Origin: Psammoneis japonica | Taxonomy: Eukaryota | Assembly (NCBI GenBank): GCA_008632985.1 | Contig: QPGO01000288.1 | Coordinates: 1 to 64,000, forward strand | Length of the DNA: 64,000 bases | Direction: 5' to 3' | Shown here: piece by piece, positions 25,085 through 36,433 of the stretch | Numbering within the stretch: position 1 is the stretch's first letter | Layout: the number at the start of each line of letters is the position of its first letter | Made by a program: the position numbers and the translations under genes | Notes under the pieces: generated by a model | What the model was told of the DNA's origin: nothing | Seen by the model: only the letters and a program-made list of their open reading frames with translations | Databases searched by the model: none

Positions 25085-25915
25085 CGACTTTGGTTGCACA
25101 GCTTTGTGGCAGGAGCTTTGGCAACTTGTTTGACAGCTTTCACAGCTGCACTTTGACTCTTTTGTGGGTGTGCCATTTGGCAGCTTTGGCAACTTTGACA
25201 ACTTTTGGCACTTTTTCCAGCTTCTTTGGCAGCTTTGTGGCAACTTTGACAACTTTTGGCAGCTTCTTTGGCAGCTTTGGTGGCTTTGGCAACTTTGATG
25301 AGTTTTGTGAGTTTGGCAACTTTAAGAACTTTGATGACTTTGACAACTTTGGCATTTTGGCAGGAGGATTTTGGCAATGTTTTGACAGCTTTCACAACTT
25401 TTGCAGCTTTGGCAGCTTTGACAATTTCATCAACTTTGGCAGCTTTGACCCTGCTTTGTCAACTTTGACAACTTTGGCAACTTCCACAACTTTGTCACTT
25501 TGCAGCAATCTGGCAACTTTGGCTTGACTTTGTCATCTTTGGCATCTTTGTCAACTCAAGTCACTTTGGCAACTTTGTCAACTCAAGTCACTTTGGCAAC
25601 TTTGTCAACTCAAGTCACTTTGGCAACTTTGTCACTTTTGTCAGCTTTGGCAAGTCTCTGGTGACTTCATCAACTTTGGCAACTTCAGCTGGCAACTTTG
25701 TCAGCTTTGGTGAGTTTGTCAACTTTGTCACCTTTGGCAACTTTGTCATCTTTGGTGACTTTGTCAACTTTGGCGGCTTTGTCATTTTTGTCAACTTTGT
25801 CAGCTTTGGAAAGTCTCTGGTGACTTCATCAACTTTGGAAACTTTGGCTGGCAACTTTTGTCAGCTTTGGCGACATTGTCAACTTTGGCGACTTTGTCAA
25901 GTTTGGCAACTTTGC
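25085..25915. repeat. Degenerate 9-bp-period minisatellite (ggcaacttt/gtcaacttt/ggcagcttt) with higher-order units
   Basis: Continuous 9-mer periodicity. The 27-bp unit (ctttgtcaactcaagtcactttggcaa) occurs three times at about 25546-25626, and a ~70-bp block containing aagtctctggtgacttcatcaactttgg is repeated at about 25640 and 25800. Confidence 0.85.
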
Positions 25916-26962
25916 CATCTCCAAATCTGCTCCATGGCTGCCATGCCCCCTTGACAATGGGGGTGGCAATTCAAAGAGGTGTGTGCTGTTCTCAAGACAG
26001 AGCTCATTCTTCATGCAGCGACCGGCTGTTGTGGCTCTGGCACAGAAATGTTCTTGTGAAGTTTTTGAAGAATGGCTCATTTTTGACTTGTGCACAAGCC
26101 TGTGAATGACATGATCACCTTGTGCTCTAATGCAAAGCATTCTGGGAGGAAGGAAACTTTGTTGGGGGAATCCTCAAATGGATTGCTCTTTTTTGTGAGC
26201 ACTGCTCGTCTGTTGTGACTTGGCTCTTGTTGGCGGGGCAGGGTGTGGCTCGATTTGGGGTGCCCTTGCTTTGGGTTTCATCAGGTTTGCGTGCTTCATT
26301 GCAAGAATTTGTGCTCTGTAATGTGAGTCTGGTGCACAGCTCCTGTGAAAAATGTGTGTGTCAGCGGTGCTTTGCCAAAGTGCTTGTGACTGTTCTTGTT
26401 TGCAGCAACTGAGGAGCTTCGCCAACTCCAAGCAATCAAGAGGAAAAGAGCTGGATGTTTTCAAATGATGTGGGGCTGGTGACCCTGATGACTTGAGACT
26501 TTTGTTGAGGTTGGCTTCTTTGGGATGATGCGACATCAAAAGTGTTGGCTCATGAGTCAATTCATCCGAAAACAAACATCTCCCAGCAGCTCTGACGTCA
26601 AAGGCTCAAGAATTGTCTCTTGCCTTCACCATTGGGCTGTGGTTCATTCTGCCCTACAGCAGCTAGCACTACTCTCTACTCTCTACTAGAGAGTAGAGAA
26701 CTCTACTCTGCAGCTGAATGCTCTACTCTGCAGCTGGTCTTGTCCATGTTCTTGTGCACGATTCTGCTTCTGCGAGCCATGCGAACCACTGTACAGTGGG
26801 GCTACTGTATGAGAACTTCCGATTTGAGTCGTTTCTGAGTCGTGCTTGACTAATAAATATATTCAGGTCCGTAGTTTCTTTTGTCCTCTCTGATCTCGGG
26901 CCGGTCTCACGTCTCACGTACGTCCTGGGTCCTGTCGTCACAAAAAGCACCGCTAAACGAAA

Positions 26963-28663
26963 ATGACACAAGAAGCCTCTCGGCCATTTATCATTGGCAG
27001 TGGAGAGCATCGTCTCCGATCGGAGAACCTGGCGTTTGACATTGATGTTTGGTATCCACCCCTCGCTGAGCACACCTTTCATACGGTTTTTCTACCTCTG
27101 ACACGTCTCGAGGCCCAGGCGATTGTGACTTACTACAACAAGGTATTCCGTCATGTCGAGGACGGGAGCTTCACTGACTCTGTGGTAGAAACTCTTCTAG
27201 CATTGGAAGCCCGCATTGACCAAGCTCTTATTGAAGAGTCTTTTGTGAGTCCTGACGATAATGATGGAAGCAGGAGGAGCGGCGGCGCCTTTTTACGCCT
27301 CTGCGGTCGCTCCCCAAAGGATGGTGAACCCACCGACCCAATGATCCGAGCAAAGATTTGGGAAAGTTACTGCGCCAATTTGCGGACATTGACCTCCCAT
27401 AATGCAGAGCTCAACAACGATGACGACGAGCACGGCAACGCTCGTGTCGCGGCCATTGCGCAGACTGATTCGTTGTTGCATGTAAACAGCGGTAGCGACG
27501 CCATGTCGCTTCTACTTACATCTGAGCGGGTCTTTTCCGATATGTTAGATTGGCACAATTACGGTGAACCAGAACAAATTGTTCTTCGACAATTCTGTGG
27601 CTCTTTCAACTTGTCGACGGAGTTCCGCTGTTACATTCAGAGTGGAGTCCTCCGTGGAATTAGCCAGTACGACACTTATGCACGTTATTCCTTTTTGCTG
27701 GATGCGTCAAAGCGTGACATTGTGGTACAGTCAGTAGTCAAGGAATGGATCAAAGTAAAAGACTGCATCCAAACAATGGATGATAGCTACTGTATCGATT
27801 TTGGTGTTGACATGGAACGAAAAAGGGCCTTGCTTATTGAAATTTCACCTTATCGATGTTGTACGGGTCCAGCGCTCTTTGCTTGGAAGGGCGAGGCAGA
27901 ACTCGTCTTTCCAGACCGACAGGATGTTCATGACCACAAGATTGCTTCTGTAATTATACACGAACAGTTAGCAAAAGATGCTGTCTTTCGCATTAGGTCG
28001 CAAGTGATACCGAGAATTGGTGACCTTGTGGAAATGAACTGGGACTATCGCTGGTCCAAGGAAAGGGTGGACACCCCCAAGCCATATCGTGACGTGTATG
28101 CCGCTGCCATTACAACTAGCACGAACCTTGTGGATAGATTCAGTTGCTGGTTGTTCGGGGAAAGGGGAGTACAACAACACGTCCTTTTTGTTTATGGGAC
28201 ACTGAAACGAAACTGCCATTGGCATTCCAAATACATGACAGGAGCAAAATTCCTGGGGATAGGAACGACAGTCACACCTCAATCTCTTGTGATTGGTCAG
28301 TGTGGAGTACCGTATCTGATACGCACGTCTTCTCCAGATAGTGAGGCCAAACCCGTAAAGGGTGAATTGTGGAGCTGTACGAGCGAGATGCTGCAAGGGA
28401 TAGATGAGTATGAAGGCATCCACAAGGATCATTATTCACGCCAAGAAATTGCTATTGTTGTTACTGGACGGTCAAACCGAATCCAAAAGGCTTTCTGCTA
28501 TTTCTATGCAGTGAAGCCAGGCGCCTCGGGTGTCGACGCCTCGTTGTTGCAAGCCGAGCGAATTTCTGAGTACACTGTGGAAGAGCAAAAGAAGCAATAC
28601 AAACCCATCCACCACATCCAGGTAAAACAGATGCACTATCTTGGAGAAGAGGCAACCACCTAA
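26963..28663 (+). CDS. CDC123/D123-like ATP-grasp domain fused to a C-terminal gamma-glutamylcyclotransferase (GGCT/AIG2-like) domain
   Basis: GAFLRLCGRSPKD, LLLTSERVFSDM, EFRCYIQSGVLRGISQYD, IDFG and LIEISP (D123/R2K-type). Then VLFVYGTLKRNCHWH..GVPYL..VKGELW..GIDEYEG..YSR (GGCT/GGACT). Single 566-aa intronless ORF. Confidence 0.85.
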   Translation: MTQEASRPFIIGSGEHRLRSENLAFDIDVWYPPLAEHTFHTVFLPLTRLEAQAIVTYYNKVFRHVEDGSFTDSVVETLLALEARIDQALIEESFVSPDDNDGSRRSGGAFLRLCGRSPKDGEPTDPMIRAKIWESYCANLRTLTSHNAELNNDDDEHGNARVAAIAQTDSLLHVNSGSDAMSLLLTSERVFSDMLDWHNYGEPEQIVLRQFCGSFNLSTEFRCYIQSGVLRGISQYDTYARYSFLLDASKRDIVVQSVVKEWIKVKDCIQTMDDSYCIDFGVDMERKRALLIEISPYRCCTGPALFAWKGEAELVFPDRQDVHDHKIASVIIHEQLAKDAVFRIRSQVIPRIGDLVEMNWDYRWSKERVDTPKPYRDVYAAAITTSTNLVDRFSCWLFGERGVQQHVLFVYGTLKRNCHWHSKYMTGAKFLGIGTTVTPQSLVIGQCGVPYLIRTSSPDSEAKPVKGELWSCTSEMLQGIDEYEGIHKDHYSRQEIAIVVTGRSNRIQKAFCYFYAVKPGASGVDASLLQAERISEYTVEEQKKQYKPIHHIQVKQMHYLGEEATT

Positions 28664-29398
28664 CTTTGGTTACTGTATTTGCAGGGCTGCAACCACCGGG
28701 ATCATCTTGCCATGCAATACCGACCTGAGATCATGCCATTTACCGTACGTTTGCAACATAAAGCCGAGAAGTGCAAGTATTAGAAAGCCGTGTAAGTCAT
28801 AACCGTTTTGTGGACTACCAGCACTTGTGCCATATTCTGTGAGGTAGCGCATTATGATGAAGTTGGGGTGTATAAACTATATTATGTACACATTTTGGGA
28901 GATGTAATTCTCCTTGAATATTGCTGCTGCATTCTCACGCAGAGTATCGTGTGTGCCTGTGTTCCTTGTGCGATATGGTTTTCCTCTAGAAGAGGCTGAG
29001 GACACGCAGACATGAGCGCCCTAGCTTGGTGTGCCGTGCTAACTTTCTCCTCTTTCCTTCTGCTGTACGTTTTGCATGAAGCCGGTATGAGGCCACATGC
29101 TCTGACTCTGTTGTTTTTGGATCACTGTACTTTTGAGCTCAGTAGCTACTAGCCTCTCTCTAGTCTAGTAGCTACTAGAGTCTCTAGCTAGTAGAACTCT
29201 AGCTACTCTCTCTAGAGAGAGTAGAGTTGGTCGATGATAAATTGGTGCTGATCAAAAATGCAGTCGACTGTTTCGATTCGTATGAGCAGACGTACAGACA
29301 GCAACCGTTGGATCATCGAATATATCCTTCGAGTATGAATTTTAATAGAGTAATTTGCTGTGGAGGGAGAAAGTGATCTTCATTTTTTTTAGCCGACC

Positions 29399-30253
29399 AT
29401 GACGCAATTCAAGCGCAAGGTAGTCGATACCCCGAGTGGACGCGTCTCATATCTGGAATCAGGCAGTGACAAAGAAAAGGTTGTTTTGTTTCTTCACGGG
29501 ATTGCAGGCAACGCACGGTCGTTTCGACGTCAACTCCTCGATTTGCCCAACAACAACTACCGCGTCTTAGCATGGGACGCTCCTGGCTATGGAGAATCGT
29601 CTGCAATCAAATGCAAGGATCCATCAAACTTTATGCAAGCATATGCTCATATTGTTTGTGACTTTCTTGATGGACTTGGTCTGAAAAAGCTGAGCGCAAT
29701 TGTTGGAGTGTCAATGGGCGGTATTGTGGTGCAGTGTGTTGCTGGGTTGTATCCGGATCGTGTCGAAACGTTGGTGATTACGAGTAGTTATATCGGAGAT
29801 GCCATGCCACCCGAGATTCCCTTGGCAGAAAAATGGACAAGCCGAATAGAGGATCTAAAACTCAAGGCGCCACAAGAGTTTGGTGTAGCTCGAGCGGCAG
29901 GAATGTTGCCAACGGATGAACAGGTAATGAGGAGCGGGAGGATTTCTCAAGACGAGTTTGACTCGATCAGAAACAAAATTGCGTCGATAGCTTCAGAGGT
30001 TACGCCAGATGGGCTAATAGGTGGATGTACTTTACTTCATGTAGCTGATACCAGGGTTTTTGCAAGCGACTTTACCATGCCGGTGTTGGTGATTATTGGC
30101 GAGCTCGACAGAGTGATCGCACCCGAGAAAACTAGAAAACTTGCTGACTTGATGCCTCACTGCGACACATTATTCTTACCAGGTGTTGCCCATGCAGCAT
30201 ATCTGGAAGATCCAGAAACGTTCAATGCGGCCTTGGTGAATTTCATCAAATGA
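29399..30253 (+). CDS. Alpha/beta-fold hydrolase (PcaD/MenH-like)
   Basis: LFLHGIAG, AWDAPGYGES, nucleophile GVSMGG, GELDRV (Asp) and GVAHAAYLEDPETFN (His); intronless. Confidence 0.92.
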   Translation: MTQFKRKVVDTPSGRVSYLESGSDKEKVVLFLHGIAGNARSFRRQLLDLPNNNYRVLAWDAPGYGESSAIKCKDPSNFMQAYAHIVCDFLDGLGLKKLSAIVGVSMGGIVVQCVAGLYPDRVETLVITSSYIGDAMPPEIPLAEKWTSRIEDLKLKAPQEFGVARAAGMLPTDEQVMRSGRISQDEFDSIRNKIASIASEVTPDGLIGGCTLLHVADTRVFASDFTMPVLVIIGELDRVIAPEKTRKLADLMPHCDTLFLPGVAHAAYLEDPETFNAALVNFIK

Positions 30254-31315: not shown

Positions 31316-34300
31316 TTACAATTCATCCCAATCAATCGCGTTGATCTTGGAGTAATACTTCCCGTCGCGCCCTTCCTCGCGACGGACCTGGAAGTACCTA
31401 TCCGGCATATCGAATCCCGATTGCGTTGCAAGTTCACTCTTGATCATGTGGACAAACTCCTGCAAGTTGGGAGCAGAGTGAATGAAAGTGAGTTGGACTT
31501 TTTGTCAAGCAAAACATCACAACAGACGATATGAGCACAATTATGAATGACGAACCTGGTCGTGAGTGATCGTCACGAGCTGAAAGTTTTCCTGCCTGGA
31601 ACGAAGCGCGATAATCTGGGCTAGAGCGACCGCAAGTCCTTTCTTGTTATCGAAATCGAGGTTCACGGTGGGTTCGTCAAGAGCAATCACACCGCAGTTC
31701 AGGCAAAACGTTTCAGCAAGAGCCAAGCGAATCACAATGCACGCCAAGACACGTTGTCCGGCACTGCAACGGCCCCTCATGTCAAGCTTGGCGTTTCCTT
31801 TCGTCATGACAACGCGGTAGTTATAAGAACGCTTTGCTCTCGATCCGGTGTCCTGTCCGGCAATCAACTCAATGTTGGTGATGTCCTGTCCTTTATACGT
31901 CATGCTCCATAGGTCCCTAATGATCTTGTTGATTTCACCAATCTTTATATTGTGAAACCTCATTAGAGCCTTATCCACGGCTGTATAGTATTTGTCAAGG
32001 TCGGCTACGGCGATCACGGTTGTCTGATGCTTGATCATTGTCACCCTATAGCGCTCGTCGACGTCCTTGTACTCTGGAGTCTGCAGCTTTCGCTGGAGTC
32101 AATAAAAGTATCAACAAACAAGCAGTGAGCATACAATACCAGCGACGCCGCTCATCCAAGAAACGAACGATGCATACCTTGAGAGCACGGACGTTGTCCA
32201 CAATGCCTCCTCGTCGACCTTCATGCCGCGCTTTCGCATTCAAGAGTTCTGTCTTCCGCTTCCGAGCACGGTGCGCGTCTTGTTCAGCTGTTGCCGATCC
32301 TTCGATGTTCTGCACCTCCTTCTCGAGCTCTGCAATTTCTTGCTCGAGCGCGGCAATCGATTGCGTGAAACTGATTTGGCTGATATTGTCCTCGATATTC
32401 TTCTTGTGGCGCTGTTGATCGCCTACACTTTTGGTAAGAGCATCGAGCTTCGGAGACAGAGTCTGAAGCTCCTTCTCCCTAGATTGAACATTGTCGTTCA
32501 ACCTAGTAATCTTGGACGCAAGTCGATTAAACCCGTCTTCTCCTCGGTGGGAGTCCTCGTATCTATCAATCTGGCTAGTCAGTGCACTGAGAGCATCGAC
32601 ATCGTTCCTGAACAGAGTCACCGACTTGCTCAGCTGATTCTCTTCCTCTGAGGCCTGCGAACGAGCTCGCTGGCGTTTGGCTTCCTTTTCTCGGATCTTG
32701 AGACGAATTGGAGCAAGTTGCTCTTCAAGCTGCAGGATAAAAGTGTCAGAGTGCACTGCTACATTGATAATTTTGAAAATGACGGACACCGGTTCAGGAT
32801 ACTTACCTCTTTGTCCTCTGCTTCGAGGGCTTCTAATTTGTCTGTCAACTCAGTCCGACGAATCTGGGTTTCTTGTTCCTTCGCGTACCTTTCTTCCTTT
32901 TCCTTCAAGATTTGCTGAATTTTTTCCGCCTGTTGTAGACAAGAGTAGAAGAAACGAATTAGTAGTGAAAAAGAAGAGGCGAAACCCATGGCGATGGGAA
33001 TGTTACCTTTATCGAGTTAGCACTAATCTTATTGTTCAGCAAGGCTGGCAAACAGGAAGAGAACGACCAGGAAACAACAGCAAAGTGAGCAAAGGACGAG
33101 AATTCGTAGGATTAATTCACGTTGTTTTGACTTACTCATATCCTTGTTGAGCCGCTGAACCCTTGACGCCATCTCGTCCTTCCTATTTCGCTTGTCTTGC
33201 AGATCGCGCTCGACCTGCTTCAAATCACGCCCGCCAGTATCCGGAATCACCATAGACATACTCATGCTGGTCTCGTGCTTGCTTGTGATCTGCAAGCGCT
33301 TCTCTGAAATGCGCGAGGCTTCTTCGCACCAGCGTTTCGTTTTTTCAACAAGACTACGCAAGTCGTTTGCCTCCTTCTCAATGTCGCTGCTGCTATCTTT
33401 GGCCTTGTCAAGTGCGACTTGGTTCCTCTGGAGCTCCTCCTCCAACTTGGCGATATCCGCCTTCAACGTTGCGATCTCTTCGTGAACGCGTTCGTGTTCA
33501 TGCAAATCCTTCATTAAAGGCTCAAGAGCCGACTTCATATCCTGGTATTTGTCGGTACGGACACGATTCGTTTCGGCCCTGTCTGCGTTCAAGGGCTTCA
33601 TCAAGGGCGACGTTTCCACGTCCATGAGTTTCTGCATGGCGGTTTGCATAACTTGGATCTCGTCCGAGTCCATGTCGCGTTCGCAGCATGGGCAGACATA
33701 GCTCTTGCTGCCATCGTCGTCGCGAACCTCGCGCTGCGAAAAAGACCAAATGAGATTTCGGTGAATATCACGGGTAATAGAAACAAACCAAAGCATTACG
33801 TGAACTTACCAGTCTGTAGAGTCTTTTCATAATCTTTGAAAATGCCATCTTCGGAACCTCGTAAGACGACAGATCGTCAATCAGATTCGTAAGAGTATCA
33901 AGAAGATCTTGTGGAGAGACGCCTTCCGGGACTGCTACATTGTCGCCATGCTCTACTTCAAAGGCTTGCATGTTTCTGACCATTTGGCGGAACTCGCGCA
34001 TGCTTCCGTCCAGAGCTGTCATGCGACCCTGGAGTTTCTGCATGGACCTGCGGTTGTGTTCCAAAAGAGCGCTAGATTCGGAGACACTCTTTTGCTTGGC
34101 TGTTTCCTTTTCTTGAGCTCGATCAAGATCCGTCTTCATGTCGTTGTACTTGTCCTCCACCTTGTTTGCCCATTCGTGCATGGCTCCCACAAGCTCATCC
34201 TCATTACCATCTCCCTTTAGACCGGGCAAGGACATGGGTGAATCGATATTGTACTGTCGAAAACTCGATTCTTCCAAGGTAAGAGTTTCCTGGAGATCCT

Positions 34301-36433
34301 CCAATTCCTTGGCCGCCTGCTCTTCCAGCATAACTATTTGCTGCTGAGCCTCAGCATTGTCACGAAGCTCCTTGAGGACAAGCTCGTCGTCTTCGATTTC
34401 GCGTTTGAGCTCTTCAGATTTGCTTTCAATGTTTCGAATCTTGACTTGAGCGTCTGATTCTTTCTGTTCCTTGTTGAGCGCTTCACGCTCTTGGGCTGTA
34501 TAATTACAAGACAGATGGGCAGAGTTCAACGTGAGATTCAAAACAAATCCTCGAGGATTCAAGGCACAAGCCATACTGTCCGTACTTACCAATCCTGATG
34601 AGATCGCGTTTTGACTCTTCAATCTGAACAGCGAAAGCAAAACAGTATTGTCGAATGTTAGAGAGCCAAATATTACAACCGGGAAGGCCGATTCGACAAT
34701 CTTACCTCGCTCTTGCGCATCCTTGGGCCGCGATGAGTCTCCCTGGCCAACGTGTCAATTTCTTGCCGTGCTTCTTGGCGCTGCTGCGCAATCTTTTTTC
34801 GGTCTGCTCACCACAAAGCAAATACATAGTCGCATATATAAGATGCGCTTTACAAAAATCTCAGAAAACACAATCGACTGCGTCAATTTCGGTCTTACCG
34901 TTCTCGATTGACTTTTCCTTTCCGATCGCGTCTCCCAAGACAACTTGAAGCTGGTCTTCGGCGGCCTGAGACTTTTCACGAAACTGCTTGAGTTCATCCG
35001 TAAGCTCCCTTTCCTTTTGTTCCAGAGCTCTGGTAAAGGCCTGCATGTCTTCGGGGGAAATGGAAATGATGCTCCCCTGCGTTCCTCCACCCGCCGTCGT
35101 GGTGTCATCTTGAGATTCCTGAGTGCCGGTGAGCATGGTGCCTTGTGTCTGTGTCACGGCGAGATTGATGCTGTAAGTGTGAGCCATTTGTTCCATCTTG
35201 GAAAGACGGGACCGTAGCACCTTTTCGTGCGCCTCTTTTTCTGCCTCGAGCTTGCCGAGCTGTCCCTGTAGCTGCATTTCTTCTTGACGATAAGACTGAA
35301 TCTTGTTTTGTAGCGACTGAATGTTCCTCTCGAGGTCTTGTTTCTGCTGCTCTTGATCCGCGACTTGCTCGTCAAAGTCACTTAGCATATCCTTGAGTTC
35401 ACGAAGCGTGTGTTTCTCGGTAAGATTCTCCTGCAACATTTCCAGCTGCGTGTTGGCCTTGGTCCGTTCCCGTTCGAGCTCGTTTTGCTTGACTTCCAAA
35501 TCGTCCACGGCCGTTCCTATTCGGGAGAGTACGTCATCGGCACGACGAATCTCGTCATCCAACCCGTTAAGCTCTTCCTTGATGGTAACAATCTCTTCCT
35601 CAATCTCTTCCACTTGCTCATTGTGCTGCTCGAGTTCCTGACGACAAAGCTTGGCCGCGTGTTGGTGACTCCTGAGTCCCTCCACGTCGGCCTTGAGATC
35701 CTTGGCCTTGGCAGCATAGTCCTTGCTTGTAGCACGAATCGCCACGAGTGCCTTGGCGTATTTGGTCGAATCAAAAATGTCATCAAAGCGCTTCTGCAAG
35801 ACGGCGCCCTCCATGAGCGGCCAGGACGAGTCTTCTTGATGACAAAACATAACATGCTCCAAGACGGGTTTCGTCACCCCCATGATGGACGGTATTTGTC
35901 GATCGAGTTCGGTACACTTGTGAGACATGCTGATGCGTTCTCCCGTTTCGGGATTGTTGGAGCGTAGCACCCCGTCTAGAGCCTTGAAGCTGAGCGTCGT
36001 TTTCTTTTGCTGTACTTCCATACTTCGACTCACCACCATGGTGTTTCCGAGGCGATTGGTGAAGCGGAGCTTGATATTGGCCTTGACGACGGACTGGCCC
36101 ACGCTCTTGGGGTCGTGCACAAAGGCTTGGCCCGCCTTGTTACCCGGGGGTAACGAACCGGTTACGGCGTACTTGAGACTCTCAATGATTGTGGTCTTGC
36201 CACAGCCGTTGGCCCCGACAATGACAGTGACGGGATAGAAGAATTCAATCACCTTATGGTATCATATGGGAAGAGAGGATAGATGCATGGGTTCGTATGG
36301 GGTTTGTAAGGATCAATCTTAGCAACAGCAATGCGATCACAACGTCGAGAACACACACAGTTCGTACCTGCTCTTTTTCATCGGGCGAAAACGCACGCAC
36401 GCCTCGAATAGACAATTTGTTTATGGACGCCAT
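31316..36433 (-). CDS. RAD50: DNA repair protein RAD50, multi-exon
   Basis: Exon 1 [17 protein letters not shown]; Walker [23 protein letters not shown]; long coiled coil; zinc hook CPCC; signature MRGRCSAGQ; Walker B ALDEPT; ITHD; last exon ends DWDEL* at 31316. Confidence 0.96.

Follow-up and report, generated by a model that had tools for sequence, protein, structure and literature searches.

Canonical Cdc123 (R2K.1; PF07065; PDB codes 8phd and 4zgn) is a chaperone and ATPase of eIF2 assembly without demonstrated ligation. Its binding and hydrolysis of ATP are shown in the accessible part of PMC12860950, and, according to the available portion of PMC8844851, no modification made by Cdc123 has been detected so far. 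Amide ligation has been predicted for the Cdc123/R2K clade since 2015, its product is not known, and the activity stands as a prediction in the accessible text of PMC4431377. The same text describes non-canonical CDC123-like proteins in amoebae, Legionella and giant viruses.

GGACT (A2LD1; PF06094; PDB codes 3jub, 3juc and 1vkb), which is a stand-alone protein in human and mouse, acts on gamma-glutamyl alkylamines, as described in the available part of PMC7022552; gamma-Glu-epsilon-Lys is one such substrate.

An ATP-grasp amide ligase and an opposing cleaving enzyme are joined in one chain in trypanothione synthetase-amidase and in glutathionylspermidine synthetase/amidase. The amidase of the former is not strictly required and the C-terminus is implicated in control (accessible sections of PMC2427367 and PMC2784880). 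These enzymes belong to another ATP-grasp family, contain an N-terminal CHAP cysteine amidase and yield a glycyl-spermidine amide, and their likeness to the protein described here is one of working, the architectures being non-homologous. Pairs of an ATP-grasp enzyme and a GGCT-fold enzyme are also known, as in phage UFV-P2 (LUZ24-like) and in BtrJ/BtrG, where BtrJ is the ATP-grasp ligase of the butirosin pathway. Such pairs are encoded by separate genes, involve other ATP-grasp families and are prokaryotic or viral. BtrG strips a protective gamma-glutamyl group (available text of bioRxiv 10.1101/2025.01.15.633182), while in UFV-P2 the ATP-grasp ORF is directly followed by an AIG2/GGCT ORF (accessible part of PMC3890496).

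The window analyzed here, a stretch of 64,000 nucleotides from Psammoneis japonica (assembly GCA_008632985.1, contig QPGO01000288.1, positions 1 to 64,000), contains a gene in which a Cdc123-like ATP-grasp domain and a GGACT domain are fused (Table 1). Its reading frame runs from the ATG at 26963 to the TAA ending at 28663 with no internal stops; the open frame is 568 aa in length and the ATG lies two codons 3' of an in-frame stop. The Pfam D123 profile matches residues 167–310 (E 9.4e-16, 58.3 bits, cut-off 24) and the GGACT profile residues 408–517 (E 1.7e-18, 67.7 bits, cut-off 22.8). Thus the claim of an earlier note on this DNA, that both sets of motifs lie in one ORF, is borne out by an uninterrupted 566-aa frame and by the two profiles that the note had proposed for the purpose (PF07065 and PF06094), each of which exceeds its cut-off. 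No NCBIfam family matches the protein, and no CHAP amidase or GSP-type synthetase domain is matched by Pfam up to an E of 1. In the ESM Atlas the protein finds its own cluster at 0.96; with D123 skipped, only leads below 0.9 are obtained, to clusters resembling R2K_2/R2K_3. Four diatom-type relatives, namely those of Seminavis robusta and Gedaniella and two proteins from the same cluster, one of the four being a “complete” MMETSP transcript ORF, are 62–63% identical to the protein over residues 11–566 or 14–566 with no intron-sized gaps, which makes a diatom the likely host. In the relatives from TRINITY/MMETSP transcriptomes, both domains are likewise contained within a single ORF.

Table 1. 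Coordinates of the fusion gene, its domains and motifs, and neighboring features in the window.
Feature	Position	Strand	Basis or remark
Degenerate 9-nt tandem array	25100-25920		~800 bases
CTA/TAG-rich low-complexity tract	26665-26730		short, partly self-complementary
Cdc123-like ATP-grasp + GGACT fusion ORF	26963..28663	+	566 aa, uninterrupted
Fusion-specific N-terminal motif, residues 15-22	27005..27028	+	alignment
R2K.1/Cdc123-like ATP-grasp domain, residues 17-369	27011..28069	+	structural match to human Cdc123; Pfam D123
RAGNYA strand 2 and loop, R112-D120	27296..27322	+	alignment with the canonical Cdc123 of the genome; PMC4431377
Fusion-specific loop D196-Q205	27548..27577	+	alignment
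E293-x-S295, equivalent of the ExN metal motif (human D246xN248); Asn replaced by Ser	27839..27847	+	alignment
Linker, residues 370-404	28070..28174	+	model, hydropathy, hydrophobic moment
GGACT domain, residues 405-549	28175..28609	+	structural match to human GGACT; residue map
Catalytic Glu E484	28412-28414	+	residue map
C-terminal helix 548-559, conserved, past the end of human GGACT	28604..28639	+	alignment and model
CTA/TAG-rich low-complexity tract	29140-29225		short, partly self-complementary
Alpha/beta hydrolase ORF, uninterrupted	29399-30253	+	best NCBIfam matches PcaD-like, below cut-off
RAD50-like candidate gene, multi-exon	about 31500-36250	-	recognized by eye from the translation

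The AlphaFold2 model of the fusion protein, calculated from an alignment of 111 sequences, has a mean pLDDT of 92.3 and a pTM of 0.91. Residues 17–369 of the model superimpose on human Cdc123 (8phv) with a VIA-align Z of 20.1 and an rmsd of 4.1 Å over 256 aligned residues at ~20% identity, and the next structural matches of this part are other ATP-grasp enzymes with Z of 8–9. Residues 405–549 match human GGACT (3jud) with a Z of 18.6 and an rmsd of 2.0 Å over 132 aligned residues. In the structure prediction that the note had suggested, the N-terminal half is thus modeled as an ATP-grasp and the C-terminal half as a GGACT. Since the larger domain makes up 0.65–0.71 of the chain, a pTM of 0.91 indicates, by the definition of this score, that the relative orientation of the two domains is confidently predicted, and they would accordingly dock on each other in a fixed arrangement.

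A homolog search with the fusion protein gave 159 matches among 8000 scored candidates, and both Pfam domains are present in 108 of the 120 homologs among the matches listed. In a domain-profile survey, both domains were found in 130 of 295 proteins, and the ATP-grasp part is nearly complete in 117 of the 130. Among these 117 fused rows, five belong to clusters already counted. The profile matches examined were the best 150 of 6353, so that independent fusions may exist elsewhere. The named members come from organisms that we take to be diatoms, a chrysophyte, a raphidophyte, foraminifera, a cercozoan, a dinoflagellate and nine amoebozoan genera, with further members in Acrasis, Gefionella, Picozoa, choanoflagellates, Syssomonas and a bdelloid rotifer (a partial protein); transcriptome entries among them may derive from prey or contaminants. 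No land plants or fungi occur among the named members, and most members are nameless. One fused protein from Acanthoecidae (P0186, 1343 aa) carries ~750 extra C-terminal residues with no further Pfam match and may be a chimeric transcript.

In a FastTree phylogeny of 264 rows, each covering at least 265 profile positions, the 117 fused rows and seven rows without a GGACT match form one clade with a support of 99 among 139 unfused non-canonical rows. The ends of the seven look truncated or mis-spliced; they were assigned according to how they scored with the fused profile, and with the 117 they constitute the 124 fused-type rows referred to below. The fused clade is also recovered by IQ-TREE with 100/100 support from 51 rows (22 fused, 28 unfused and one canonical). 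Both trees have a single canonical outgroup on a long branch, and the fused rows were mostly gathered with this protein as the query. The survey and phylogeny that had been proposed thus place the fusion in one clade among the rows examined, and the sequences indicate that the family is ancient, with a single origin in protists. The pairwise identities of the two domains are correlated (Spearman 0.63 over 109 rows, permutation maximum 0.16), as expected when both are inherited together.

Chance read-through was rejected in view of the single clade over many eukaryote groups, the complete transcript ORFs of relatives and the fusion-specific motifs, which comprise residues 15–22, 196–205, 300, 359–364 and 548–559. 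For the broader explanation, an incidental fusion of independent enzymes or a gene-calling artefact, it may be said that the single-chain status of the Psammoneis gene rests on a genomic ORF and on the transcripts of relatives. It is nevertheless hardly credible given the same clade and transcripts, invariant fusion-specific motifs in both domains, their correlated divergence and the pTM of 0.91.

The fused clade is nested among unfused non-canonical Cdc123-like proteins, one of which comes from an uncultured Legionella genome (L005:1956-3086). This member links the unfused neighbors to the fast-evolving second set of CDC123 proteins described in the accessible text of PMC4431377. Another unfused bacterial homolog is found at L041:5884-7029, next to a GNAT acetyltransferase gene. 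Searches of IMG/VR with the fused and unfused alignments gave 75 and 92 pattern matches, respectively, none of which was confirmed, and no fused version was found in GenBank phages. Plasmids gave two weak partial matches, to the unfused paralog, and GTDB, queried with one short pattern of low sensitivity from the unfused alignment, one locus, which is unfused. No description of the fusion was found in the literature within reach, subscription papers being mostly outside its scope, and papers naming both cdc123 and a cyclotransferase concern, to judge by their listings, human expression or genetics. In the searched text of PMC4431377 and of one supplement, figures aside, no cyclotransferase fusion is named. 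As far as found, the architecture is new to print, though it is present unstudied in public databases, for example as “AIG2-like family”.

Four D123 matches in the genome correspond to three genes: two are the exons of canonical CDC123 at G000:C63 (202 and 105 bits), and the others are the unfused paralog (74.5) and the fusion gene (59.6). Canonical Cdc123 and the fused clade are separated by a long branch in both the FastTree and IQ-TREE phylogenies. That the fusion protein is itself the canonical Cdc123 of eIF2 assembly was rejected on account of this branch and of the higher-scoring canonical copy elsewhere, and the earlier view of it as divergent and non-canonical is upheld. The unfused paralog (G000:C6:167121-167636, L003:1027-2139) is a non-canonical protein of ~370 aa with an ExN motif, and its closest relative among the matches listed is from the diatom Stephanocyclus (51%).

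The ATP-grasp domain shares with canonical Cdc123 the fold, the second RAGNYA lysine (K119, in 124/124 fused-type rows), the ExR motif (E220 and R222, each in 123 of 124), the strand-4 Asp (human D233, here D279, in 123/124) and the first acid of the ExN motif (human D246, here E293, in all 124). It differs in having Arg at the first lysine, Ser in place of Asn, extra invariant arginines, the GGACT domain and the linker. The catalytic residues, whose possible absence had been raised in the earlier note, are thus kept in the ATP-grasp site apart from the first two of these differences. At the first R2K lysine (human K104, here R112), Arg, which is a conservative replacement, is found in 122 of 124 fused-type rows, while the 139 unfused rows have Arg in 122 and Lys in 17. 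The position of the ExN Asn is occupied by Ser in 119, Gly in four and Ala in one of the fused-type rows, unlike in the unfused non-canonical proteins, which are single-domain and keep the Asn in 138 of 139. Both the replacement of this Asn in 124/124 rows and the Arg at the first lysine speak against a ligase, and the change to ExS could, as judged from the sequence, weaken the binding of a second metal. PurT and PurK are active ATP-grasp enzymes with a small residue at the Asn position, and ExS therefore need not imply inactivity. An occasional polar substitution of this Asn is noted for R2K proteins in the accessible text of PMC4431377.

Four further positions, R116, S187, R189 and Y236, hardly vary among the non-canonical members, whether fused or unfused, and the canonical Cdc123 of this genome has different residues at R116, R189 and Y236. 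This pattern suggests a substrate site absent from the chaperone. The N-terminal motif is specific to the fusion, with H16, R19, E21 and N22 kept in 117–119 of 124 fused-type rows and without conservation in unfused relatives. Two cysteines beside the ATP-site motifs, C114 (111/124) and C300 (120/124), are conserved in the fused clade only and possibly have a redox or metal role.

The cyclotransferase domain is nearest to GGACT proper, with a profile E of 2e-20 compared with 1e-5 for GGCT and 0.1 for AIG2. The reference residues are YG(S/T)L, I50, the catalytic Glu82, Y88, Y115 and Y143, and the nine site residues of mouse A2LD1, taken from the available part of PMC2954230, map to Y411, G412, T413, L414, V449, E484, Y491, Y513 and Y546. 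All nine are kept, one of them conservatively (V449 for I50). In the 117 fused rows, Y411 is found in 108, G412 in 109, T413 in 108, L414 in 115, V449 in 109, E484 in 107, Y491 in 106, Y513 in 104 and Y546 in 111. The assignment to a GGCT/GGACT type made before is supported by these residues together with the Pfam and fold matches. Unlike the stand-alone enzymes, the joined domain is extended by a conserved C-terminal helix, in which H551 is kept in 110, K555 in 105, Q556 in 106 and Y559 in 111 of the 117 rows.

Eleven of the 117 fused rows deviate at Y411, G412 or E484. Three of them are truncated or mis-called, and the remaining eight form one clade (support 100) in which E484 and the YG motif have been lost. 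Each of the 13 ATP-site residues that were checked is present in this subclade, which retains 50 of 74 conserved columns in the N-domain as against 12 of 33 in the C-domain. What is retained is thus the function of the ATP-grasp domain, which appears from the alignment to be indispensable, while the cutting function can be lost, in parallel with the dispensable amidase of trypanothione synthetase-amidase. E202-P203 is changed to GK in all eight rows and K555-Q556 is also altered (I in five, E in six), a coupling that hints at contact between the loop 196–205 and the C-terminal tail. GGACT-dead fusions at L017, L019, L020 and L023, whose genes match proteins of the P0112/P0113 type, come from a eukaryote of 18–19% GC in which genes lack introns and lie close together; the gene next to the fusion in L017 and L023 resembles a Rab GTPase, as judged from the start of its sequence.

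The whole GGACT-like domain persists in the subclade, and this agrees equally well with the domain binding a compound or supporting the structure as with its being an eraser. The protein could combine a Cdc123-style ATPase or chaperone, or a ligase of other chemistry, either acting on a protein partner, with a GGACT domain that mainly binds or senses gamma-glutamyl compounds and regulates the first. Such a protein has an appreciable, if minor, probability: the sole tested relative is a chaperone ATPase, the ExN motif has become ExS, the GGACT fold outlives catalysis in the eight rows, and Paulinella, in the accessible account, reuses catalytically dead GGCT folds non-enzymatically. It is harder to reconcile with the catalytic Glu kept in 107 of 117 rows, very distant lineages included, with the canonical Cdc123 and unfused paralog already present in the genome, and with the extra invariant arginines of the ATP-grasp domain.

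The reading favored here, tentatively and at slightly less than an even chance, is that of a gamma-glutamyl-amine synthetase/cyclotransferase working like trypanothione synthetase-amidase, for which the UFV-P2 gene pair and BtrG are further precedents. From the sequence we infer a ligase activity for the ATP-grasp domain, whose site would phosphorylate the gamma-carboxyl of free glutamate and join it to a primary alkylamine, which may be a polyamine, the side chain of a lysine or the head group of an amine lipid. The GGACT site, by its conserved residues, would then cyclize the glutamyl group to 5-oxoproline and free the amine. The opposing activities may be balanced through contact between the domains and through the conserved helix at the C-terminus. 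Cyclization to 5-oxoproline requires the free alpha-amine of glutamate, so that GGACT removes only free Glu joined by its gamma-carboxyl. For this reason the erasure of TTLL/RimK-type polyglutamate chains, such as those of tubulin, was rejected. The writer-eraser proposed in the earlier note therefore stands in part: both domains, folds and sites are present, whereas the erasing of chains or cross-links within intact proteins does not agree with the alpha-amine chemistry.

The two domains could also act in sequence in salvage. From degraded cross-links GGACT would release 5-oxoproline and an amine, and the ATP-grasp domain would recycle a product, for instance by opening 5-oxoproline at the expense of ATP. 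Consecutive steps are often combined in a fusion, and the known job of GGACT, in the accessible accounts, is the breakdown of gamma-Glu-epsilon-Lys. Salvage is nonetheless very improbable, as conservation of the ATP site persists in the GGACT-dead members and the genome has five other GGACT-family matches. Moreover, ATP-grasp enzymes activate carboxylates, and the known oxoprolinases use other folds.

The chemistry of the favored synthetase/cyclotransferase would equally serve a biosynthetic instead of a regulatory purpose, in a protect-and-deprotect module like BtrJ/BtrG where a small-molecule amine is gamma-glutamylated, modified by another enzyme and then freed. BtrG itself and phage clusters with an ATP-grasp gene beside an AIG2 gene and amidoligases, as far as the accessible sources describe them, provide the precedent. 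No partner genes are found among the neighbors here or at six fused-type loci with long flanks, and it is hard to see why a whole subclade would have given up deprotection, which makes this purpose distinctly unlikely. No conserved synteny was seen, the ORFs at the six loci being unrelated, and the alpha/beta hydrolase that adjoins the fusion gene here does not lie beside it in the four loci tested. The RAD50-like candidate lies beyond this hydrolase on the other strand, short low-complexity tracts lie on either side of the fusion gene, and the 9-nt array lies upstream (Table 1).

At least one 19-residue window with a hydropathy of at least 1.7 is present in 33 of 117 linkers. Among the 81 non-redundant linkers without such a window, 69 lie above the shuffled hydrophobic moment, 24 of them at p ≤0.05; in unfused relatives, by comparison, 14 of 124 C-terminal tails reach the same level. 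The hydrophobic-segment label changes 23 times on a tree of 109 rows, which reflects either frequent gain and loss or a noisy threshold, and several members have short, polar linkers. In the Psammoneis protein, helices are predicted at 375–385 and 389–401, the latter fairly hydrophobic and weakly amphipathic (muH 0.54, shuffle p 0.28). A transmembrane segment in this member was rejected, its best 19-residue hydropathy being 1.0. Membrane association is thus a putative property of the family rather than of this member in particular; in most members the linker would keep the enzyme at the membrane surface. The more specific proposal, that a docked writer and eraser of an ancient protist family reversibly gamma-glutamylate a membrane-surface amine, either a membrane-protein lysine or an amine lipid head group, is regarded as rather unlikely.

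That many lineages of eukaryotes carry a fixed GGACT partner restricts the likely product of the Cdc123/R2K clade to a gamma-glutamyl amide, and the decade-old prediction of R2K ligases becomes directly testable through the fusion. If the cyclotransferase alone is active, the result is a modest one, a new domain architecture. The fusion could, on the other hand, bring to light a reversible glutamyl tag that is new for protists such as diatoms and amoebae. Membrane-surface gamma-glutamylation, if true, would add a new kind of reversible modification and provide the first demonstrated Cdc123/R2K ligase chemistry.
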